A stretch of 64,000 nt of DNA from an uncultured Thermoplasmatales archaeon (GTDB taxonomy: Archaea > Thermoplasmatota > E2 > DHVEG-1). The notes beneath the pieces were generated by a model. The model did no database searches, was not told the DNA's origin, and saw nothing but the letters and a program-made list of their open reading frames with translations. The position numbers and the translations under genes were made by a program. Below are positions 5,321-48,975 of this stretch, one piece after another (the first letter of the stretch is position 1; each line of letters opens with the position of its first letter). The DNA is taken from the NCBI GenBank assembly GCA_964638175.1, contig CAZWZY010000001.1, forward strand, positions 62,257-126,256. Direction: 5' to 3'.

Positions 5321-5363
5321 ACATTTTTAGACCCTATCTGATATGGGCATTCGGGGTAGAATT

Positions 5364-6317
5364 ATGAAAGTATTAATTACTGATAAGATGGCAGAAGAAG
5401 CAATCCAATTGTTAAAAGATGCAGGTCACGAAGTTACCTATGAAGAAATGGATGCTCCCAAGCTTCTAAAGGAAATTTCCAACTATGATGCGTTAATGGT
5501 GCGTGGACGAACAAAAGCAGTAAAAGAAATTGTTGACGCGGGGGCAAAGGGACAGTTAAAAGTCATTGGTCGTGCTGGCATTGGAGTCGATAATATTGAT
5601 ATCAAAACTGCAGCAACTCATGGAATACCTGTGGTAAATGCACCTACGGGATCCACTATTAGTGTCGCTGAATTGACCATTGGTCATATGCTTTCGTTAT
5701 CCCGGCATCTCTACAAGGCAGATGCGACGATGAAGAAAGGAGAATGGGCAAAGAAGCAGTTGAAAGGTATCGAACTTCATGGTAAGACACTAGGACTCAT
5801 AGGGTGTGGAAATATCGGTAAAGTAACAGCAAAATTAGCCCAAGCCTTTGGCATGGATGTGATTGGATATGATCCTTTTCTTTCACAGGCAGAGCTGAAA
5901 AAAGACAACATCAAAAAAATTGAAGATCTCGGAGAGTTGATGGGCAAGACTGATTTTATCTCTCTTCACCTCCCCCATAATGAAAAAACACATCATATTG
6001 TCAATAAAGAAATGATTGGGGAAATGAAACCAAGTGCTTGTTTGATTAATTGTGCTCGTGGGGGAACAGTTGATGAACAAGCCTTGTATGATGCGTTAAA
6101 AAATGGAAAAATTGCAGGTGCAGGGCTTGATGTGTTTGAACAAGAGCCACCAACCAATAATCCACTTCTCTCCTTAGATAATGTCATGCTCACCCCACAT
6201 CTTGGCGCAAATACAAAAGAAGGGCAAATACGAGCGGGAACTGTTTGTGCTGAGCAAATTATTAAAGTATTAAACGGCAAAACCGCAGAGTATTGGATCA
6301 ATAAAAAATTCATGTAG
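5364..6317 (+). CDS. D-isomer-specific 2-hydroxyacid dehydrogenase (short D-3-phosphoglycerate dehydrogenase-like, no ACT domain)
   Basis: NAD-binding GxGxxG (GLIGCGNIG) and a catalytic-domain R/E/H pattern. Start set at MKVLITDK, preceded by GGGGT; the track ORF begins 21 nt earlier. Confidence 0.8.
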   Translation: MKVLITDKMAEEAIQLLKDAGHEVTYEEMDAPKLLKEISNYDALMVRGRTKAVKEIVDAGAKGQLKVIGRAGIGVDNIDIKTAATHGIPVVNAPTGSTISVAELTIGHMLSLSRHLYKADATMKKGEWAKKQLKGIELHGKTLGLIGCGNIGKVTAKLAQAFGMDVIGYDPFLSQAELKKDNIKKIEDLGELMGKTDFISLHLPHNEKTHHIVNKEMIGEMKPSACLINCARGGTVDEQALYDALKNGKIAGAGLDVFEQEPPTNNPLLSLDNVMLTPHLGANTKEGQIRAGTVCAEQIIKVLNGKTAEYWINKKFM

Positions 6318-6344
6318 CGGAAAGCATATAATAATAGAGAGCAG

Positions 6345-7061
6345 TTGTTAGATACCATGAAAAATTTAGGACAAATTGTTGATAAAATTGGAAAAAGTAT
6401 CGATGAAAAAGATAAAGCTCGGGAGCATGCTCTTCGCGCTTCTCGGGATATTATTATTGGGTGCCGAAAGGCAATTCAGTGTTTACATCAGGAGAAAATG
6501 AAAGACGCGAGCACTCATATTAAAAAGTCACATCGAGAGTTGTTGAAACTCTATGAAGTAACAAAAACATATAGTGATTTATCACATGCGGGCTTTGTAG
6601 AAAACGCAGCACAGGAAGTTGTAGAAGCACAATGCCTGATGAACATTATGCGAGGCAAAGAGCTACCTGACCCAGACGAAATGAAAACCACCTACAGTTC
6701 GTATCTGCTTGGTCTCTGTGATATAGTTGGTGAGCTCCGAAGACGGGCGTTGGATTTTATTCGGAAGGGGAAGGAGGAAAAAGCAAATGAGTGTCTTGAC
6801 ATGATGGAAGAAATCTACAATGCCCTCATTCATTTTGATTACCCTTCAACCCTTGTTCCTATCCGAAAAAAACAAGATATGGCACGAGGTCTTATCGAGC
6901 GGACACGAGGAGAACTTGCCATTGCCAGTTGTGAACGGCGGATCGAATATCGTACTGACGAATTTAGGGGCATTCTTGATCGTATGAACGGCAATGAGAA
7001 ACCAACAAAACAAAAAAAGAATGGAAAACCTTCTGATTTAGATATCGACAAAGTATGGTAA
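6345..7061 (+). CDS. Translin-family protein (putative)
   Basis: Pattern …REHALRASRDIII…YLLGLCDIVGELRRRALD… resembles archaeal translin-like proteins; recalled from memory, no search run. Confidence 0.45.
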   Translation: MLDTMKNLGQIVDKIGKSIDEKDKAREHALRASRDIIIGCRKAIQCLHQEKMKDASTHIKKSHRELLKLYEVTKTYSDLSHAGFVENAAQEVVEAQCLMNIMRGKELPDPDEMKTTYSSYLLGLCDIVGELRRRALDFIRKGKEEKANECLDMMEEIYNALIHFDYPSTLVPIRKKQDMARGLIERTRGELAIASCERRIEYRTDEFRGILDRMNGNEKPTKQKKNGKPSDLDIDKVW

Positions 7062-7097
7062 TGATCATCTAACAACCATACTGTTGTAAACAAAATG

Positions 7098-7120
7098 TTT
7101 ATATAAAGCCTTTATATACT
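7098..7120 (+). promoter_or_regulatory. TATA-box-like elements upstream of the first TBP gene
   Basis: tttatataaag and ctttatatact lie 26-48 nt upstream of the ATG at 7146. Confidence 0.35.
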
Positions 7121-7145
7121 TCAGGGAGGGAAGGCTGACCTTATT

Positions 7146-7691
7146 ATGGCAGAAATTACCATTGAAAATATAGTCGCTTCTGCACAACTTGCAGACAAAT
7201 TGGATATTCAGCAGATAGCAGATGCCATACCCGAATCAAAGTACAATCCTGACAGCTTTCCCGGTCTTGTTCTCCATTTTGAAGAACCGAAGACGGCAAC
7301 CCTACTATTCTCTAGTGGGAAATTTATCTGTACCGGTGCCAAGCGAATGGAAGATGTGGCTATCGCTTTACAAAAGCTCGTTAGTAAAATGCAGGCTATC
7401 GGCATCAGTGTTAAAGAACAACCGAAGATGAAGGTGCAAAATATTGTCGTTTCTGCAAATCTCGGAAAAGAGTTTGAGCTGAATGATGTTGCCAAGGGTC
7501 TCTTACAGCAAAATGTAGAATACGAACCAGAACAATTTCCAGGATTGATTTATCGAATGGATGGTGCTGGTACTGTAATATTGTTATTTAGCTCGGGGAA
7601 ATTAGTATGTACAGGGGCAAAAGCAATAGAAGAAGCAACAGCTGCCGTTGACCTGATGAAGGAAAAGCTAGCATCATTGGGAGTTTTATAA
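7146..7691 (+). CDS. tbp: TATA-box binding protein (paralog 1)
   Basis: Two TBP direct repeats, each with an …FPGL.YR…TALLF.SGK..CTGAK… motif. Confidence 0.95.
   Translation: MAEITIENIVASAQLADKLDIQQIADAIPESKYNPDSFPGLVLHFEEPKTATLLFSSGKFICTGAKRMEDVAIALQKLVSKMQAIGISVKEQPKMKVQNIVVSANLGKEFELNDVAKGLLQQNVEYEPEQFPGLIYRMDGAGTVILLFSSGKLVCTGAKAIEEATAAVDLMKEKLASLGVL
7518..7543 (+). repeat. 26-nt segment (GAATACGAACCAGAACAATTTCCAGG) shared with both halves of the second TBP gene
   Basis: Identical nucleotide string encoding EYEPEQFPG in the C-terminal repeat of TBP1. Confidence 0.8.
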
Positions 7692-7705
7692 AAGGAGGAA
7701 AAATT

Positions 7706-8257
7706 ATGCCAGAAGTAATTGTAGAAAATATCGTGGCATCAACGTCCTTTTCAGATAAATTGGATTTAGATGTCATAGCGCAATCGCTAGAAGAAGCAGA
7801 ATACGAACCAGAACAATTTCCAGGCCTTGTCTATCGGCTTGACGAACCGAAAACAGCAACCTTGCTCTTTAGAAGTGGAAAGGCAAACTGCACAGGTGCA
7901 AAGAATGTTCAAGATGTGAAAAAAACGGTAGATATTATTGCAGAAAAACTCAGAAAACTTGGTGTAGACGTCTATAAAGATCTCAAGATTGTCATTCAGA
8001 ATATTGTTGCCATTTCTGACCTTGGTACTGAGCTGAATCTGAATGAAGTGGCAATGGGGCTTGGGTTAGAAAATGTTGAATACGAACCGGAACAATTTCC
8101 AGGCCTTGTATACAGAATTAAAGAACCAAAAGTCGCGATGTTGCTCTTTGGTTCTGGAAAAATCGTCTGCACCGGCGCACGAAAAACTGAAGATGTGTCA
8201 CTTGCAGTCGATAAACTCTCAGCAGAACTGAGTTCGTTGGATCTCATTAGGAAGTAA
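7706..8257 (+). CDS. tbp: TATA-box binding protein (paralog 2), in tandem with paralog 1
   Basis: Same two-repeat TBP architecture, roughly half identical to paralog 1. Starts 14 nt after the paralog 1 stop. Confidence 0.95.
   Translation: MPEVIVENIVASTSFSDKLDLDVIAQSLEEAEYEPEQFPGLVYRLDEPKTATLLFRSGKANCTGAKNVQDVKKTVDIIAEKLRKLGVDVYKDLKIVIQNIVAISDLGTELNLNEVAMGLGLENVEYEPEQFPGLVYRIKEPKVAMLLFGSGKIVCTGARKTEDVSLAVDKLSAELSSLDLIRK
7799..7830 (+). repeat. 32-nt intragenic and intergenic TBP repeat copy (TBP2 N-terminal half)
   Basis: gaatacgaaccagaacaatttccaggccttgt. Confidence 0.8.
8078..8109 (+). repeat. 32-nt TBP repeat copy (TBP2 C-terminal half), one mismatch to the 7799-7830 copy
   Basis: gaatacgaaccGgaacaatttccaggccttgt. 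Confidence 0.8.
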
Positions 8258-16669: not shown

Positions 16670-17638
16670 TTAACGGTCAAACACCTCAGGGTTGACGCAG
16701 TTGCGAGGTTTTTTGGCTTCAAGTCCGTCCATCATATTCTCTGCTGCTATGAGGGCCATCTTCGTTCTTGTCTCAATTGTTGCTGAAGCGGAATGGGGTT
16801 GTAAAACGACATTATCAAGTTTTTTTAACTCTTCAGGGATGCGGGGTTCGTGTTCGTACACATCTAGTCCTGCTCCAAAAATCCATTGTTGGCGAAGTGC
16901 CTTAAGTAACGCTTTTTCATCAACAACAGGCCCTCGAGAGGTATTGATAAGAATGGCAGTGTTTTTCATCATCTTCAATTCATCTTGTCCAATCAGACGA
17001 TGTGTTGATTTCACCAAGGGGACATGAATGGAGATAAAATCAGATTTTCTAAGCAATTCATGTAGTGGTACTTTTTTTGCTCCTACTTCTTGTTCAAGAG
17101 ATACATTCTTTTTCCTATCAGTATACAACACAGGCATGTTGAATCCTCTACTCTTCAGGGCAACTGCTGTACCAATTCTCCCTGCGCCGACAATACCTAG
17201 GGTTTTGTTACTTACATCCTGCCCAAGCATGAGTAATGGGGCCCAACCTGAAAACTTACCGACTCTGGTGAAATTGTCTCCTTCAACAATACGTCTTGCG
17301 ACAGCAAACAAAAGCGCCCACGCCATTTCTGCTGTTGTATCAGTCAATACATCGGGCGTATTGCTCACCGGTATGCCTTGTTTTGTCGCAATATCGACAT
17401 CAATATTGTCGTATCCCACTGCATAGTTGGCAATCATTTTAAGATCTGGGTTTGAGGAAATGACCTCCTCATCAACGGTGTCAGTCAGCAGACAAAGCAA
17501 CCCCTGTTTTCCCTTAAGACCTTTCATAATTTCCTGCTTTGAAAGAACGCGATCGTGTGGATTGACTTCTAGCCCAACATGTCTCTTCAGTAAATCAAGT
17601 CCTGGCTGCGGAATTTTTCTTGTGACAAAAACGTTCAT
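16670..17638 (-). CDS. gyaR: Glyoxylate/hydroxypyruvate reductase (D-2-hydroxyacid dehydrogenase family)
   Basis: GIVGAGRIG NAD motif and a 2-hydroxyacid dehydrogenase catalytic region (…RG…E…H…). Confidence 0.8.
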   Translation of the reverse strand: MNVFVTRKIPQPGLDLLKRHVGLEVNPHDRVLSKQEIMKGLKGKQGLLCLLTDTVDEEVISSNPDLKMIANYAVGYDNIDVDIATKQGIPVSNTPDVLTDTTAEMAWALLFAVARRIVEGDNFTRVGKFSGWAPLLMLGQDVSNKTLGIVGAGRIGTAVALKSRGFNMPVLYTDRKKNVSLEQEVGAKKVPLHELLRKSDFISIHVPLVKSTHRLIGQDELKMMKNTAILINTSRGPVVDEKALLKALRQQWIFGAGLDVYEHEPRIPEELKKLDNVVLQPHSASATIETRTKMALIAAENMMDGLEAKKPRNCVNPEVFDR

Positions 17639-17684: not shown

Positions 17685-18137
17685 CTATAGTTGCTCTTTA
17701 ATCGTTTCAAAACAGGCGAAGGTTACTGTTTTTCCTACTCCTTGAAGTTGACGGAGTTTGTCCACCACCAATTTTCCAATATCTTCCAACGATTTTCCCC
17801 TCACTTTTAATAAGAGGTCATACTCACCAGAAATGATATGGACTTCATAAACTCCAGGAAATTTTGTTATTCGTTTAGCAAGTTGACGTTGAGACACATC
17901 AGGATTAGGCAAGAAAGAAATAAAAATAAATACTTCTGAAGGAAAACCGATTTTTTGATAATCAATGGTGACATTAAATGATTTGATGACTCCTCGCTCC
18001 ATCAGCTTCTGAATGCGATCGTGGACAGTTACTCGCGGGATGTTAATATGTTTTGCTATGGATTTGGTTGATTGTCGTGCATTTTTTTTCAATTCTGAAA
18101 GGATCAATTCGTCTTTTTTATCTATCATGTTCGTCAT
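17685..18137 (-). CDS. asnC: Lrp/AsnC-family transcriptional regulator
   Basis: N-terminal HTH (…LSELKKNARQSTKSIAKHINIPRVTVHDRIQKL…) plus a C-terminal RAM domain. Divergent from asnA. Confidence 0.85.
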   Translation of the reverse strand: MTNMIDKKDELILSELKKNARQSTKSIAKHINIPRVTVHDRIQKLMERGVIKSFNVTIDYQKIGFPSEVFIFISFLPNPDVSQRQLAKRITKFPGVYEVHIISGEYDLLLKVRGKSLEDIGKLVVDKLRQLQGVGKTVTFACFETIKEQL

Positions 18138-18234
18138 TATGTCGATTTATATATTTATATTTTATCGTTTAACTGTATTATTGTCAATATATTAGACATA
18201 GTGTTTAAATAATGTTTTTTACAAATACGATACT

Positions 18235-19140
18235 ATGAAAACACAAGATGTGGAAAAAACCAAAGCTATTATGAAAATACAAAGTGAAATACGGCATGTT
18301 CTGGCTACAGAATTACGAAAGCGAGGGTTTATTGAACTTTCACCAGTGATATTATCCCCAATTACTGACCCGTTGAATCACCCTACAACGCCGATGCACA
18401 TTACATGCTATGGTAACAAATATAATCTTACTCAGAGTATGATCTTCCACAAACAGCTTGCATTACGATCATTGGATAAAATTTTCATTTTTTCCCCAAA
18501 TGTTCGCATTGAATCATTTGAACAGAAAGACACAGGAAGACATCTCTTTGAATTTTCTCAACTTGATTTGGAAGTAAAAGGAGCAACACGGGAGGAGATG
18601 ATGTCTTTGTGTGAAGAATTGTTAGTGACCATTATAACATCGCTAAAAAAACAATGCAAAAAAGAATTGGAATGGATAGGTCGGAAACTCCAGGTGCCAA
18701 AAATTCCTTTCAGAAGAGTTACCTATTGTAATGCACGTAAGCAATATGGTGATAAATTCGAAACGATGATTTCCCAAACACATGCAGAACCAGTATGGAT
18801 CATTGATATTCCTCTAAGTAAACGGGAATTTTATGATAGAGAAGACGAAAAGAATCCAGGATACCTCAGAGATATGGATTTAATTTATCCAGAAGGATAT
18901 GGAGAGGCGCTTTCTGGCGGAGAACGTGAATATGAATATACCCGAATTAAAAAACGAATTCATCAAAAAGGACAACGATTATCATTATTTGCTCCGTATC
19001 TTCAAGTAGCAAAAAACGGTTTACCTCCATCAGCAGGATTTGGTATTGGAATTGAGCGTTTGACACGATTTATTTGTGGGTTGCCCCATATAAAAGAAGC
19101 GTGCCTTTTTCCAAAAATACCTGGAGAAAGATGTCTTTAA
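18235..19140 (+). CDS. asnA: Archaeal AsnA-type asparagine synthetase (class II aaRS catalytic core without anticodon-binding domain)
   Basis: Class II synthetase motifs (…FEFSQLDLEV… motif 2; …GFGIGIERLTRFICG… motif 3) in a 301-aa protein. Confidence 0.7.
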   Translation: MKTQDVEKTKAIMKIQSEIRHVLATELRKRGFIELSPVILSPITDPLNHPTTPMHITCYGNKYNLTQSMIFHKQLALRSLDKIFIFSPNVRIESFEQKDTGRHLFEFSQLDLEVKGATREEMMSLCEELLVTIITSLKKQCKKELEWIGRKLQVPKIPFRRVTYCNARKQYGDKFETMISQTHAEPVWIIDIPLSKREFYDREDEKNPGYLRDMDLIYPEGYGEALSGGEREYEYTRIKKRIHQKGQRLSLFAPYLQVAKNGLPPSAGFGIGIERLTRFICGLPHIKEACLFPKIPGERCL

Positions 19141-20045
19141 ACAGGAGAAGACTTTGATCTGACAAGGTAGAGGAGAAGTTCATTTAACATCGTTTCTACA
19201 TGATGGTTTTTTCCCACTTCGACTAACTTTCCATTGATGGCGTCAATTTCTGTTCTCTTACCTTTCTGTATACTTTGCAGCATCGAGGATTGGTTATGTG
19301 CTGTTTTACGTATAACCTGTTTTGTTTTTTGTATTAGATCATTAGGAGAAAATGAAAAACCATTAGCCTGTGCAATGGCTGTTGATTCCTCGCATATTCT
19401 TTTAACAATAACTTCCAAGAGGGGATTTTGTAAGAGATATCCATTCTCACACCGAAAAAAAGCAGTAAGCGGGTTAATACTTGAATTGACGATGGTTTTT
19501 TCCCATAGCGCTGCGACAATATTTTTACTGATTGTTGTGGCAATTCCTACTTCATTAAAAATGTTGCAAATTTGTTGTACTCTCTCTGTCTTTTTACCGT
19601 GTAGTTCTCCAATAGTAGTATCTCCAAAACCAGTATGGTAAATGGTACCTGGCTTGGAAAAAATCGAACCGTGGGTGGTAATACCAGCAAATATCTGTTT
19701 CTTAGGGATAACTCGCCCGATGTTCTCGATATTCCCTAACCCGTTTTGGAGAGAAAGGACAATAGTATGTTTATCTATGTAAGAGGCAATTAGTCTACTA
19801 GTAAAAAAGGTATCAAATGATTTAACAGTAAATAAAAGAAGGTCTATTTGTGATTTAACGTCTATAATGGATTCTGCAGTAGAGGGGGTAACAACTGCTT
19901 CTGTCTTTCCATGAAGGTGCAAACCATTGGTCTTGATGGCCTGTACATGGCTATGACGGCCAATTAACGTAACCATATGCTTTTTTGAGAGAAAAGCACC
20001 AAACAGGGACCCAATGGCACCAGCACCCATAACGACAATGTTCAT
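19137..20045 (-). CDS. panE: 2-dehydropantoate 2-reductase
   Basis: MNIVVMGAGAIGSLFGA Rossmann start and ApbA/PanE-like length and C-terminus. Confidence 0.8.
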   Translation of the reverse strand: MNIVVMGAGAIGSLFGAFLSKKHMVTLIGRHSHVQAIKTNGLHLHGKTEAVVTPSTAESIIDVKSQIDLLLFTVKSFDTFFTSRLIASYIDKHTIVLSLQNGLGNIENIGRVIPKKQIFAGITTHGSIFSKPGTIYHTGFGDTTIGELHGKKTERVQQICNIFNEVGIATTISKNIVAALWEKTIVNSSINPLTAFFRCENGYLLQNPLLEVIVKRICEESTAIAQANGFSFSPNDLIQKTKQVIRKTAHNQSSMLQSIQKGKRTEIDAINGKLVEVGKNHHVETMLNELLLYLVRSKSSPV

Positions 20046-20956
20046 AGTGGTACCCCTCTTTCTTTACATTCTTGCTGGATGCTCTCTCGCTCCATAGATA
20101 TCAGAGGGGTGAGTATAGGAACGGGTAATTGTAACTTTAAAGCTGCTAGTTCCTGGACGGTTCTCTTTGGATTTTTGGAAAGAGTATGGTTTGTTGCTAC
20201 CGCAAGACATTTTTTTTCTATTGAGACATTGCGAATTTCTCTTACCTGCTTTTTCTCTGTTAAACTACTTGTGATGATATGAGGTTCTTGAAACCAATAA
20301 CGGAAAAAAGAGGTGATTTGTTCGGGGGCTAGATTTGTGGTACTAAAAATAAGAAGATTGCACCCTCTGTGCATCAGATACCATGCAGCCAAGAACGAAT
20401 AGAGATTATCAATCACTGCCAGGACAGCCCCTTGGGTTCCAAGCGGCATACCACCAACTCCAGATATCTTTTCAAAAAAAAGATATGCTTTATCGTTTCT
20501 AATTTCAATGAAGATGATGATGTCTGGCGTAGTAAGATCGACAGTGGCGTTTGTTTTGCATATCAACACATCTCCGATGTTTACTGCCACATCTTGACTG
20601 GAGAATGGATGTTTTCCTGTTCTTGTTACTCGAAGGGCAAAACTGGTATCTTTAGAGAGTTTTTTTTCTGAAATTTTCTGTGCAACAGCACCAATTTGAT
20701 CGAGAGTTGCTTTCGTCTCAAAAGCGGGACTGAAGGAGGTTATTCCAAATACTCGCGATAATGCATTCAATGATGGAGAGAGACGGCCGGTACGAACATA
20801 AATGCGGCCTCGGTCTTTATTTATACTACAAGCAATGTTATGATGAGTAAGGGCATTTCTGATATTTGCCACCAATTTTGATTCGAAACTCTTTCGCACG
20901 TAGGGGCTTTTTAACGAAAGTTCTCCATAGCGCACCAGTATAACATCGTAGTTCAT
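20042..20956 (-). CDS. ThiI-like THUMP-domain protein with a non-canonical PP-loop
   Basis: N-terminus …ILVRYGELSLKSPYVRKSFE… matches the ThiI ferredoxin-like/THUMP module. ThiI's PLGSxGK..LLSGGIDSPVA is replaced here by PLGTQGAVLAVIDNLYSFLA, so the SGGxDS motif is missing. Confidence 0.5.
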   Translation of the reverse strand: MNYDVILVRYGELSLKSPYVRKSFESKLVANIRNALTHHNIACSINKDRGRIYVRTGRLSPSLNALSRVFGITSFSPAFETKATLDQIGAVAQKISEKKLSKDTSFALRVTRTGKHPFSSQDVAVNIGDVLICKTNATVDLTTPDIIIFIEIRNDKAYLFFEKISGVGGMPLGTQGAVLAVIDNLYSFLAAWYLMHRGCNLLIFSTTNLAPEQITSFFRYWFQEPHIITSSLTEKKQVREIRNVSIEKKCLAVATNHTLSKNPKRTVQELAALKLQLPVPILTPLISMERESIQQECKERGVPL

Positions 20957-21065
20957 GTGAAATCAACATTCTCTATGTGCTACATTAGAGTTTTTACTAT
21001 AGGCCATACTATACTTGTCATTAAAAAATTTAGGTAGAGGTACATCATTCCTATTTAGAGTATGG

Positions 21066-46161: not shown

Positions 46162-46873
46162 GGTGGTTGTCAACTTTAGCACCTCGTTAAGTGATACATG
46201 CTTACAAAACAGTTCAACCAACTCTGCACAGTCCCAATTTTTGTATTATAAGGCCAATTCCGATAAAACCGTTTTATCCTATGTTTCAATAAGAAAAACC
46301 ACTGTTCTATCGGATTGCGCAAACCGAAAGTGATATGTTCCCATTCAACACCCAAACGTTGTAGTGCTGGTTTATACCAAGGACCACCATCAACCAATAT
46401 CTTTGGTTGATTAACACATTTTTTAAGGATATATTTTAAGAAACTATATGCTTCTATAGATGCACGACCACGTGTTACCCATATACCTAGTACTTCCCAG
46501 TTTGTTGTATCTATTGCAGCCCAGACAATATAGAGTTTTCCATTGATCTTTAGTTTGGTTTCATCAACTGCAACAACGGGTCTGTAGGTTTTACCTACTG
46601 AGAATATGGTATCAACTCTGTGATACCATTTACGAATACTTTCATGACTGATATCTTCAAAACCAGAGAGTATATTTTTACATTGTCTAAGAGAAAGCCC
46701 GTAATGATACATCAGTCTTCCAAGTGCTCTGGTCTTTCTTTGTTTTCGGTTTCGTACAAAAATATTTCTAGCTTCTAACAATTCCTCTAAGTGTGATAGC
46801 ATCCCATCCATTTGTTTTCACCAAAAAACAAGGATGGTTGCTATCATATTAAATTCTTAAGTTGACAACCACG
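46162..46873 (-). mobile_element. IS6-family-like insertion sequence (~710 bp) with 14-bp perfect terminal inverted repeats
   Basis: GTGGTTGTCAACTT at 46163-46176 and its reverse complement AAGTTGACAACCAC at 46859-46872 bracket a single DDE transposase gene. Confidence 0.7.
46176..46811 (-). CDS. IS6-family DDE transposase
   Basis: …VAVDETKLKINGKLYIVWAAID…ILVDGGPWY…NPIEQWF… fits the IS6-family D, D and E blocks. Confidence 0.8.
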   Translation of the reverse strand: MDGMLSHLEELLEARNIFVRNRKQRKTRALGRLMYHYGLSLRQCKNILSGFEDISHESIRKWYHRVDTIFSVGKTYRPVVAVDETKLKINGKLYIVWAAIDTTNWEVLGIWVTRGRASIEAYSFLKYILKKCVNQPKILVDGGPWYKPALQRLGVEWEHITFGLRNPIEQWFFLLKHRIKRFYRNWPYNTKIGTVQSWLNCFVSMYHLTRC

Positions 46874-47083
46874 TTGAATAATTCTAAAACTTTATGTATG
46901 CAAAAATCATTACCCTGTTTGTTGGGGGAATTGGCTAAAATTGATGGGCCTTCCATTACTAACTCGATTCCTCGATAAATTGGTACTTTGAGTGTGAGGG
47001 GAACCAAAAGATACCATTTACTGAGAGTAGGTGTCCGATTCCCCCTTCCACCAAAAGTTTTTTAAAAACCATGCGTAAAACGT

Positions 47084-48262
47084 TTATATGAGGCGAGATT
47101 GGCCTCGAACTTTATAATGTGCAAGTTCTTTGAATACTTCGTCTTCCTGTAAGATATTCATAATTTCCTCCGAAGAGGAGGATATTTTAATCTCTCGTGT
47201 TCGGCCGTATCTTCCCTTTGAAATAACACGTGCGGTGATAACTCCGAGCATGTCTAATTCAGAGACAAGGTCTGTAACCCTGCGCTGTGTTAATGTATCG
47301 GTTCGTGTTTTTTTGCATAGATCTTTGTATACCTCATATACCTCCCCCGTAGTGATTGCTCCTGCGATTTCTGCCTTTTTATTGTGTTTATCTTGCAACA
47401 GAATTGCAAAGAGAATGAGTTTTGATTGGGTTGGCAACGTTCTAACAACTTCAATAATACGATCAATTTCGATTTTGTTTTGGGCAAGTTTAACATACTT
47501 TTTAGTGATTTTTGGTGCTCCGTTTCGTTCTGCAAGTTCAGCAGATATCCGTAAGAGATCCAGTGCACGCCGGGCATCTCCGTGTTCTTGTGCGGCAAGC
47601 GCAGAACAAAGGGGAACGACATCATCATCGATGCTGCCTGGTTTGAGCGCAATATTAATTCGTTGTTTTAAAATATCTTGCAGTTCCCCGGCGTCATAGG
47701 GGGGGAAAATCATGTTTTCTTCGCCAAGACTGGATTTAACGCGTGGGTCAAGAAATTCGGTGAACTTAAGATCATTCGAAATACCGACGATAGATACTTT
47801 AGCGTTTGAAAGATTGCTATTTATACGAGAGAGATTGTAGAGTGCTTCGTCCCCTTTGAGCTTGTCAACCTCGTCAAGAATAATAACCGTTACACCACCA
47901 GCCCGGTCTATTGCTTCTCGTAACTTTGCATAAACCTCATCGGTTGGCCAACCAGTAAAGGGAATACGCTCAGACCACTCACTGATAAAATGATTGGCGA
48001 TGTTTTGAAGAAGGCGGTATTGAGTATCGACAACTTCACAGTTTATATAGATAAAATTTACATGTTTTCCAGTTTCTGTTCCTTTTCTCAAGAGTTCTTT
48101 GCCTACGAATTTAGTGACCGCGGTTTTTCCTGTCCCTGTTTTTCCATAAATAAAAACATTTGATGGTGTTTCGCCTCGCAACGCGGTGACAAGAACCGAG
48201 GCGAGGTCATTAATTTCCCTTCCTCTGTGCGGCAGTATTTCTGGCATGTAGGTAGGGCGCAT
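47084..48262 (-). CDS. cdc6: Orc1/Cdc6 replication initiator
   Basis: AAA+ motifs (Walker A GKTGTGKT, Walker B IILDEVD) and a C-terminal winged helix. Confidence 0.95.
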   Translation of the reverse strand: MRPTYMPEILPHRGREINDLASVLVTALRGETPSNVFIYGKTGTGKTAVTKFVGKELLRKGTETGKHVNFIYINCEVVDTQYRLLQNIANHFISEWSERIPFTGWPTDEVYAKLREAIDRAGGVTVIILDEVDKLKGDEALYNLSRINSNLSNAKVSIVGISNDLKFTEFLDPRVKSSLGEENMIFPPYDAGELQDILKQRINIALKPGSIDDDVVPLCSALAAQEHGDARRALDLLRISAELAERNGAPKITKKYVKLAQNKIEIDRIIEVVRTLPTQSKLILFAILLQDKHNKKAEIAGAITTGEVYEVYKDLCKKTRTDTLTQRRVTDLVSELDMLGVITARVISKGRYGRTREIKISSSSEEIMNILQEDEVFKELAHYKVRGQSRLI

Positions 48263-48434
48263 TGCCTCCCTATTAGTAAAAAGTCCTTCTGACTTCAGTA
48301 GTCTACCAAAAATATCACTGTTTACTGTATTTTTGTTCGTAAAATGTTCCTCCGGGGGCCTTCATAATCAACGACGCCATATTAAAAAGTTGTGTATTAA
48401 TTTTCTCCTTATTCCCTCCTGTTCAAAAAGGAAA

Positions 48435-48460
48435 GGGGGAGGCCTTTGTTTCCTATGGAA
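48435..48460 (-). promoter_or_regulatory. Origin recognition box (ORB) element 1
   Basis: Reverse complement TTCCATAGGAAACAAAGGCCTCCCCC has a TTCC-N3-GGAAAC dyad plus a G/C string, as in archaeal ORBs. Confidence 0.6.
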
Positions 48461-48608
48461 GTTGTAACATTCCATATATTCATCTTATAATTTTTCTATA
48501 TTTATAATTTTAAAAATCGAATTATTGAAATACTACTAAAAACATAAAGTTCTGGAGATACTCACGTCATACTTCTAATATCACTTTCTACCACTCCCTC
48601 CTTTTATG
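48461..48608. promoter_or_regulatory. AT-rich candidate duplex-unwinding element between the two ORBs
   Basis: ~148 bp, very AT-rich (…tataatttttctatatttataattttaaaaatcgaattattgaaatactactaaaaacataaag…). Confidence 0.5.
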
Positions 48609-48634
48609 TTCCATAGGAAACAAAGGGGTCCCCC
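48609..48634 (+). promoter_or_regulatory. Origin recognition box (ORB) element 2, inverted relative to element 1
   Basis: TTCCATAGGAAACAAAGGGGTCCCCC shares an 18-nt perfect match with ORB1 in inverted orientation. Confidence 0.6.
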
Positions 48635-48639
48635 ACCAA

Positions 48640-48689
48640 AAATAATCACATTTAAAAAATCACATAACACAGGTTATCTATGACCTGTG
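48640..48689 (-). terminator. Hairpin plus T-tract downstream of the PRC-barrel/cdc48 transcription unit
   Basis: cacaggt-N8-acctgtg inverted repeat at 48668-48689, followed on the minus strand by a T-run. Confidence 0.35.
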
Positions 48690-48711
48690 TCTCTGTGTTC
48701 CTGTTAGTTAT

Positions 48712-48948
48712 TTAACTACCGATGATGATAACATCTTTTACTGATTTTATTGAACCAAATGAAAACAGCAAGTGCCCCCGCTCATCTAAATGATAAAGCC
48801 GAGGATCAACATCATCTGACGGCTCAACAAGGATATTCTCTAATTCTCCTGTTTTACTGTCGACGGTTGAATTACGTAATATGCCTAAGTACAATCCCTC
48901 TTCGCTCATTACTGATTTCCCTCTCAGTTCATTTTCAAGGATCTTCAT
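48712..48948 (-). CDS. PRC-barrel domain protein (78 aa)
   Basis: …LRGKSVMSEEGLYLGILRNSTVDSKTGELENILVE… fits the small archaeal PRC-barrel pattern. Confidence 0.5.
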   Translation of the reverse strand: MKILENELRGKSVMSEEGLYLGILRNSTVDSKTGELENILVEPSDDVDPRLYHLDERGHLLFSFGSIKSVKDVIIIGS

Positions 48949-48975
48949 TCTTTCCCTCCTTTTTATTATATATCC

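Follow-up and report, generated by a model that had tools for sequence, protein, structure and literature searches.

The 64,000-nucleotide stretch of DNA from an uncultured Thermoplasmatales archaeon analysed here (contig CAZWZY010000001.1; the whole stretch is called the window below) contains a gene for a homologue of ThiI/TtuI, the tRNA 4-thiouridine (s4U) synthase. The gene is an open reading frame (ORF) at positions 20042-20956 of the minus strand, which runs from ATG to TGA and encodes a protein of 304 amino acids (aa) comprising a ferredoxin-like domain at the N-terminus (NFLD), a THUMP domain and a degenerate pyrophosphatase (PPase)-like domain, as indicated by ORF analysis, by Pfam and NCBIfam models and by an AlphaFold2 (AF2) model. 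The other features mapped at this locus lie on the same strand. The NFLD (residues 5-76, positions 20729-20944) and the THUMP domain (residues 82-160, positions 20477-20713) match the complete profiles of PF22025 (ThiI_fer, E 1.2e-19) and PF02926 (E 3e-16), respectively, in agreement with the original prediction, which had recognized an N-terminal ThiI-type module; both strings quoted there, ILVRYGELSLKSPYVRKSFE and TQGAVLAVIDNLYSFLAAWYL, are found in the protein. A linker with the sequence GVGGMPLGTQG (residues 166-176, positions 20429-20461), delineated in an alignment of 39 sequences from the clade of relatives described below, is located between the THUMP domain and a shrunken PPase-like α/β domain (residues 177-304, positions 20045-20428), which was delimited by hhalign comparison with canonical archaeal ThiI. 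In the latter domain a degenerate PP-loop, IDNLYS (residues 182-187, positions 20396-20413), replaces the SGGIDS motif of ThiI, according to pairwise and profile-profile alignments and to a column-based motif call made on 156 homologues.

Downstream of the ThiI-like gene lies panE (positions 19137-20045), which encodes a 302-aa member of the 2-dehydropantoate 2-reductase family with the Pfam domains ApbA and ApbA_C and a score of 287 bits against TIGR00745 (cut-off 141). The stop codon of the ThiI-like gene (TGA, 20044-20042) and the start codon of panE (ATG, 20045-20043) have the tetranucleotide ATGA (20042-20045) in common, and direct reading of the sequence therefore bears out the 4-nt overlap that had been reported. 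A putative Shine-Dalgarno-like element, GAGGGG (20053-20058), is located 7 nt 5' of the panE start codon, within the ThiI-like coding sequence. The intergenic region upstream of the ThiI-like gene comprises 109 nt (20957-21065) and includes a putative TATA-like AT-rich stretch, TATAGTAAAAA, at 20991-21001, i.e. from -45 to -35 with respect to the ATG. From this arrangement the ThiI-like gene and panE are predicted to be co-transcribed and translationally coupled.

Loss of the catalytic features of ThiI

The ThiI-like protein was compared with canonical members of the family, namely ThiI of Bacillus anthracis (BaThiI, 2C5S) and Thermotoga maritima (TmThiI, 4KR6) and the [4Fe-4S] TtuI proteins of Methanococcus maripaludis and Pyrococcus furiosus. 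Its residues were mapped onto TmThiI, whose residue roles are known from the structure of the complex with RNA and ATP (PMC4041423), using a HMMER alignment as well as a profile-profile alignment (hhalign) between 39 members of the clade and 14 archaeal ThiIs of the canonical type, in which the two groups are collinear over residues 1-304 with a probability of 100 and 36% identity. The Pfam model of the ThiI PPase domain detects only a fragment of the protein (residues 239-299 against profile positions 98-158 of 197), and the TIGR00342 score of 182.6 bits is below the cut-off of 264.5, the best stretch matching only profile positions 1-200 of 373. In pairwise alignments with TmThiI, BaThiI and PH1313 of Pyrococcus horikoshii, as well as in the profile-profile alignment, the SGGIDS of ThiI (S182-S187 in TmThiI) is aligned with I182-D-N-L-Y-S187. 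No alignment puts the PP-loop elsewhere in the protein, neither the protein nor any of the six frames of the 64-kb window contains an intact SGGxDS, and tblastn detected no ThiI-like paralogue in the window. Thus, the claim that the PP-loop had been replaced held up when an intact loop was sought at other positions of the sequence.

Other functional elements of the catalytic domain show similar losses. The adenine-binding F206 of TmThiI is aligned with N, the dimer-interface/phosphate loop TGENxGQVASQT (starting at T285 in TmThiI) reads TNHTLSKNPKRT, and the DK motif (D319-K320 in TmThiI) reads ER; the positions of the GQVASQT loop and of DK vary within the clade. The canonical TCxLCKRMMYR segment, in which the CxxC ligands of archaeal [4Fe-4S] TtuI reside, falls into a gap of ~21 alignment columns. 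The protein ends at approximately canonical position 333, before the loop with Cys344 or the third cysteine, and is indeed short at its C-terminus, as had been noted, with 304 aa compared to ~400 aa of the canonical proteins. Compared to canonical ThiI, it lacks the PP-loop, the CxxC, the GQVASQT loop, the DK motif and the C-terminal ~70 residues, and among five features that define ThiI/TtuI only the NFLD with the THUMP domain is present, the remaining four being absent. Loss of the PP-loop, the loops, the DK and CxxC motifs and the Cys344 region means that, as read from the alignments, both the ATP site and the sulfur-transfer site are dismantled. These comparisons show that the gene encodes what is, judging from its sequence, a catalytically dead homologue (pseudoenzyme) of ThiI/TtuI.

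It had also been suggested that the protein could be an enzyme with a different chemistry, and this we consider disfavoured. The residues conserved in the C-terminal domain (C-domain) of the clade (L189, A190, W192, R197-G198-C199, W221, P280, P284 and L285) are mostly hydrophobic or structural and largely common to canonical ThiI (RGC, W221 and PxLxPL), while neither the clade alignment nor the profile alignments reveal in this domain a conserved polar residue set of the family's own or a nucleotide loop. A metal site composed of C199, C250 and H257 was considered and rejected: C199, which is part of RGC, is ancestral and common to canonical ThiI, and C250 and H257 are not kept across the wider clade.

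Conservation of the RNA-binding half

The N-terminal half of the protein has been preserved together with its RNA-contacting positions. R9, K16, R21 and R51, which show no or almost no variation across the clade, align with the RNA contacts R10, K17, R21 and R46 of TmThiI, and the invariant G128, V139 and L141 align with G126, V138 and V140 of the TmThiI CCA groove. The THUMP motif SFALRVTRTGxHxFTSQDVA is nearly identical to the consensus of canonical archaeal ThiI. In the linker, the 39 aligned clade sequences all have G166, G169, P171 and Q175, and almost all have G176; the corresponding motif GxGGLPxGTQG is present also in canonical ThiI. In other words, the protein keeps the NFLD/THUMP motifs, the linker and the RGC and PxLxPL core motifs of canonical ThiI, and its N half shares 43-45% identity with the canonical archaeal proteins. 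Columns conserved to at least 90% number 33 of 170 in the N half of the clade and 14 of 131 in its C half, which is the reverse of the pattern seen in canonical ThiI (23 in the N half and 40 in the C half). The N half of the clade is basic (median isoelectric point (pI) of 9.4, net charge +6), as is that of canonical ThiI (median pI of 9.75). The C half, on the other hand, is neutral in the clade and basic in canonical ThiI, with a median pI of 7.1 versus 9.0 and a median net charge of the C-domain of 0 versus +6. This conservation pattern is that expected of an RNA-binding module retained on a retained scaffold, and not that of a new active site.

Predicted structure and relationship to known proteins

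The AF2 model, built with 26 homologues (pLDDT 91, pTM 0.87), comprises the NFLD, the THUMP domain and a small five-stranded α/β domain, with the overall ThiI fold kept. Its best fold match in the PDB (Foldseek) is PH1313 (1VBK, TM-score 0.80), followed by ThiI of B. anthracis (2C5S) and of T. maritima (4KR7); PH1313 is also the best PDB match by sequence (E 1e-35, full length). Orthology to a THUMP methyltransferase family, which the original prediction had admitted as an alternative, was rejected, since matches to the Trm14 and TIGR01177 models are confined to the THUMP region (residues 43-159) and reach 25-43 bits versus cut-offs of 280-480, and the folds of THUMP methyltransferases (Trm14, TrmN and Trm11) match via the THUMP domain only, with TM-scores of ~0.4 and root-mean-square deviations of 11-13 Å. 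A THUMP protein of the Tan1/THUMPD1 type (2DIR) was found at rank 29 of the fold matches.

[quoted passage not shown] Like the window protein, it is composed of an NFLD, a THUMP domain and a truncated PPase-like domain (307 aa in total), with a loop that reads LHDELS. However, the two proteins exhibit only ~28-35% identity, W192-Y193 and C199 of the window clade are not shared by PH1313, and the genes encoding PH1313 and its P. furiosus homologue are not located next to panE. The window protein fits the descriptive class of 'ThiI-like proteins' typified by PH1313, which has already been described.

The proteins of the PH1313 group (Pyrococcus and Palaeococcus ferrophilus, 300-313 aa) adjoin, in a weakly resolved neighbour-joining (NJ) tree, the canonical 380-aa ThiI of Thermococcus, and not the window clade. 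PH1313 shares 55% identity with the intact 380-aa Thermococcus protein, and among the named Thermococcales matches in our search (P0121-P0134 versus P0135-P0230) each genus has only one form, which suggests that the PP-loop was lost within one lineage of Thermococcales ThiI. Given the clustering of PH1313 with canonical Thermococcus ThiI, the two degenerate groups probably have separate origins and no single degenerate ancestor in common.

Distribution and selection

More than 500 clusters of ~303-aa proteins show 47-81% identity to the ThiI-like protein, and those with names originate from metagenome-assembled genomes (MAGs) of uncultured Thermoplasmata or Thermoplasmatota, in which they are often labelled ThiI by the sources. 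An exhaustive HMMER search of representatives of clusters at 50% identity yielded 3708 matches. To survey the PP-loop, we took the top 150 of these together with a Thermococcales set and kept 156 sequences of at least 260 aa. The loop has been lost from 138 of these 156 closest cluster representatives, i.e. from all 115 short forms (<335 aa) and from 23 long forms; the other long forms have either an intact SGGxDS (14 sequences) or a near-intact loop (4 sequences). The best canonical match in the homologue search, P0282, has relatives in Halobacteriota and Bathyarchaeia, not in Thermoplasmata.

In the NJ tree the ThiI-like protein falls into a clade of ~35 representatives (at 50% identity) with lengths of 293-311 aa. 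Elsewhere in the tree, sequences with intact and degenerate loops are interleaved, from which it follows that loss of the PP-loop, which is widespread among archaeal ThiI homologues, has probably been recurrent, although the tree is star-like, with poorly resolved deep branches, and too weak for counting loss events. For 32 pairs of clade genes, the median ratio of nonsynonymous to synonymous substitution rates (dN/dS) is 0.15 in the NFLD-THUMP half and 0.24 in the C half, and ranges from 0.1 to 0.3 in both. Both halves are under purifying selection and hence functional, and the gene, which is present in independent assemblies, is neither decaying nor, in view of its many homologue clusters and of a dN/dS well below 1, a chance ORF.

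Association with panE

Among clade loci with enough downstream sequence, reaching down to ~37% protein identity, panE is found directly downstream of the ThiI-like gene and on the same strand in 11 of 11 genome or assembly loci and in 68 of 68 metagenome loci (79 in total), and the 4-nt overlap is present in 47 of 74 related loci. The upstream neighbours vary and include genes for MarC, a Na/Ca exchanger and SurE, while downstream of panE the synteny extends to genes for a 2-hydroxyacid dehydrogenase (2HADH), an MBL-fold protein, EndA and Lon. The coupling is absent from seven more distant loci (31-36% identity), from P. furiosus and from Methanofastidiosia; it is, in other words, strict but clade-specific. 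A further observation concerns two sets of loci (L006, L007 and L018 versus L008 and L022), which are ~95% identical at the nucleotide level over the first ~500 nt of the ThiI-like gene, with identity falling to 55-75% through the C-domain and panE. The drop occurs at the conserved THUMP/PPase linker and represents a breakpoint of recombination (or a chimera that recurs), with the C-domain and panE inherited together; each version is present in at least two independent assemblies.

Split ThiI operons and other degenerate relatives

Degenerate ThiI-like proteins were found also in operons with genes of a different kind. In locus L096 (6354-7882), a 216-aa protein without a THUMP domain represents a complete ThiI catalytic domain, with the motifs SGGIDS, CvIC, TGENLGQVASQT, RPLLSFDK and CC; it matches the full PF02568 profile (E 1.7e-67) and aligns with residues 175-387 of TmThiI. 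An ATGA overlap joins its gene to the start of the gene for a 293-aa THUMP protein that lacks the PP-loop. The same arrangement is found in loci L101-L104, which come from the same organism as L096 and include a UBA MAG and Tara Oceans contigs, and also in L107 (3330-4855), which belongs to a different lineage and whose catalytic subunit shares 48% identity with its L096 counterpart, while its THUMP subunit has 33% identity to the window protein over the full length. In these split operons the catalytic proteins have 216-224 aa and the NFLD-THUMP proteins without a PP-loop 284-293 aa. In a third lineage, represented by locus L100 (1193-3197), a gene for a 284-aa PP-loop-less ThiI-like protein (P0240) overlaps by 8 nt the gene for the cysteine desulfurase SufS (498 bits against TIGR01979, cut-off 475).

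The THUMP subunits of split ThiI resemble the window protein in being short and PP-loop-less and in combining the NFLD-THUMP module with the same stripped C-domain. However, their genes overlap a gene for the catalytic domain, whereas the window gene overlaps panE, and neither the window nor the flanking regions of the clade loci contain a catalytic gene. No paper describing the split arrangement was found in the literature that we searched, in a search that was incomplete.

Three further loci (L090, L091 at 5400-8137, and L094) encode ThiI homologues of 372-378 aa with a degenerate PP-loop (e.g. FNGNCSS). Their genes are located directly after the CTP synthase gene pyrG, which they overlap, and the proteins possess acidic C-terminal tails, unlike canonical ThiI.

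Other features of the window

The region 17685-19140, on the other side of panE, encodes a 301-aa protein consisting of an AsnA-like core of class II aminoacyl-tRNA synthetases without the anticodon-binding domain. Its gene is arranged tail-to-tail with panE, with a 4-nt overlap, and is divergent from a gene for an Lrp/AsnC regulator, similarly to asnA/asnC of E. coli; its occurrence is restricted to the closest relatives of the window, most clade loci lacking it. A role of this core as a pantothenate ligase was set aside, since the gene forms a typical divergent pair of the asnA/asnC type and is missing from most clade loci. Two paralogous D-isomer-specific 2-hydroxyacid dehydrogenases are encoded at 5343-6317 and 16670-17638; in 35 related loci, the second of these genes is located downstream of panE at a distance of no more than a few kb.

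Elsewhere, two tandem genes for TATA-binding proteins (7146-8257; 181 and 183 aa) are located on the same strand, 14 nt apart. A gene for an IS240-type DDE transposase (46176-46811) adjoins a Cdc6/Orc1 gene (47084-48262), which is separated from a Cdc48 gene by 713 nt without a long ORF (48263-48975). The region 46176-48975 could be a replication origin region.

Possible functions of the ThiI-like protein

We tentatively propose, by analogy with the cross-subunit dimer of ThiI, that the dead ThiI homologue functions as a subunit without catalytic activity of its own, by which tRNA is presented to a catalytically active partner of the ThiI type; such a role would also mirror the split operons. 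ThiI is a homodimer joined via its PPase domains and its catalysis operates across subunits (PMC4041423). After a duplication, one ThiI copy could lose catalysis and keep tRNA binding and dimerization, whereupon the THUMP domain of the other copy could be lost. An outcome of this kind is directly visible, at the level of genes, in the split operons. In the organism from which the window derives, the ThiI-like protein would still bind tRNA, its stripped PPase-like core of ~130 residues would serve as a dimerization scaffold, and its THUMP module would present U8 (or U9) of the tRNA to the catalytic centre of an active ThiI-type PP-loop protein encoded elsewhere, with the resulting heterodimer participating in s4U synthesis. 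A role within thiolation is indicated by the degenerate relatives that occur in split operons or coupled to SufS. The original prediction had envisaged an inactive ThiI paralogue kept for tRNA binding. The inactivity is supported by the disappearance of the catalytic residues; as for tRNA binding, we infer it from the RNA-binding half, which is the best conserved part of the protein and is basic.

A comparable division of tasks has been proposed for Ctu2/Ncs2, a degenerate PP-loop paralogue of the tRNA U34 thiolase without the cluster cysteines, which would, according to this proposal, pair with the catalytic Ctu1/Ncs6 and orient the tRNA (PMC10067955). The similarity is that of a functional analogy, as Ctu2/Ncs2 is a eukaryotic protein from another PP-loop subfamily and without a THUMP domain; besides, its partnership has been shown genetically, whereas that of the window protein is a prediction.

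Several observations weigh against a tRNA-presenting subunit. No catalytic ThiI-type gene was found in the 64-kb window or within ~7 kb in ~80 clade loci, and the conserved partner gene of the clade is panE, which a partnership with ThiI leaves unexplained. PP-loop loss seems polyphyletic in the poorly resolved NJ tree and the split-operon lineages are only 33% identical, so that the transfer of function from the split operons is an analogy. Pyrococcus possesses, besides its PH1313-type protein, a full-length TtuI (PF1288) that is active alone, which means that in this genus no THUMP domain has to be provided by the degenerate copy. Finally, D319, a dimer contact of TmThiI, is not conserved, its counterpart being E289 at a variable position.

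Some of these observations would be accommodated by a stand-alone non-catalytic tRNA-binding protein, homodimeric like PH1313 and operating without a ThiI-type partner, for instance as a chaperone, as a sensor of uncharged 3'-CCA ends or as an adaptor like Tan1/THUMPD1. Tan1/THUMPD1 is a non-catalytic THUMP protein that acts as a tRNA adaptor for another enzyme, the N4-acetylcytidine (ac4C) acetyltransferase; again, the analogy is functional, as it has no PPase-like domain and no sequence relationship to the window protein beyond THUMP. The combination of a dead catalytic site with a conserved basic RNA-binding half agrees with such a role, as do the crystallization of PH1313 as a homodimer, the absence of thiolation genes near the ThiI-like gene in the clade loci, and the retention of the PH1313-type protein in Pyrococcus despite a full-length TtuI that works alone. 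We regard it as plausible but less likely than a partnership with ThiI, as genes of other degenerate ThiI-like proteins are found coupled in operons with those for a ThiI catalytic domain or SufS, and the selection acting on the C-domain (dN/dS 0.24) requires a reason, e.g. a protein-protein interface.

The clade's constant neighbour raises the question of a function tied to PanE, i.e. that of a regulatory or scaffolding partner of ketopantoate reductase that senses a nucleotide, coenzyme A (CoA) or tRNA, or that of a new enzyme of the pantoate/pantothenate route. panE follows the ThiI-like gene in all 79 clade loci, mostly with the ATGA overlap, while the upstream neighbours vary, and in the recombinant pair of loci the C-domain stays linked to panE. 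In addition, the pantothenate route is incompletely known in Thermoplasmata: pantoate kinase (PoK) is absent from Thermoplasmatales, as is phosphopantothenate synthetase (PPS), and additional analogous enzymes have been predicted (PMC6650551). On the other hand, the coupling is confined to the clade, the broader synteny downstream of panE makes linkage by descent plausible, and the overlap would be hard to break, given that panE has no promoter of its own. Moreover, the C-domain possesses neither family-specific conserved polar residues nor a nucleotide loop, and the NFLD-THUMP module is an RNA-binding one; no link between THUMP proteins and ketopantoate reductase was found in the literature searched, which was covered incompletely. 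We therefore deem a PanE-tied function improbable. More improbable still is its most far-reaching form, in which the operon would encode a functional pair, with the THUMP pseudoenzyme binding PanE and making the synthesis of pantoate and CoA responsive to a signal in the form of RNA or a nucleotide, such as CoA or the uncharged 3' ends of tRNA, or with the stripped Rossmann-like domain supplying a missing pantothenate step of Thermoplasmata.

It is hardly credible that the protein is still a synthase of s4U at position 8 (s4U8) with an unconventional mode of ATP binding. The ThiI fold is kept and many sources annotate such proteins as ThiI; however, nearly all ATP-binding residues of TmThiI are substituted or deleted, the only matches being S187 and T207 (aligned with T205), the loop with the catalytic cysteine is missing, and the score is below the TIGR00342 cut-off. 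The chance that we are dealing with a decaying pseudogene of truncated length or with an artefact of assembly, as the reduced length and the lost motifs might suggest, is negligible in view of the length of 293-311 aa kept across ~35 clusters at 50% identity and in independent assemblies, the dN/dS of 0.1-0.3 in both halves and the confidently predicted fold. Both residual s4U synthase activity and pseudogene status are thus effectively excluded.

Conclusions

Pseudoenzymes derived from tRNA modification enzymes have rarely been recognized in archaea, and automated annotation labels proteins of the present type 'ThiI' or 's4U synthase'. The gene described here should not be annotated as an s4U synthase, and the capacity to make s4U8 should not be inferred from it. 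Compared with the literature covered by our incomplete search, the prevalence of PP-loop-less ThiI, the split ThiI operons and the coupling with panE may be new. The strictness of the latter constitutes an unexplained lead for the study of archaeal CoA metabolism, and if the ThiI-like protein and PanE did form a pair, vitamin B5 synthesis in archaea would have a regulator of a novel kind, to which the bacterial PanZ-PanD offers a loose parallel. If, on the other hand, the degenerate proteins are tRNA-presenting subunits, the orphan structure 1VBK would gain a testable function, and the ThiI homodimer would have been repeatedly split into binding and catalytic subunits, in parallel to the eukaryotic Ctu1/Ctu2.

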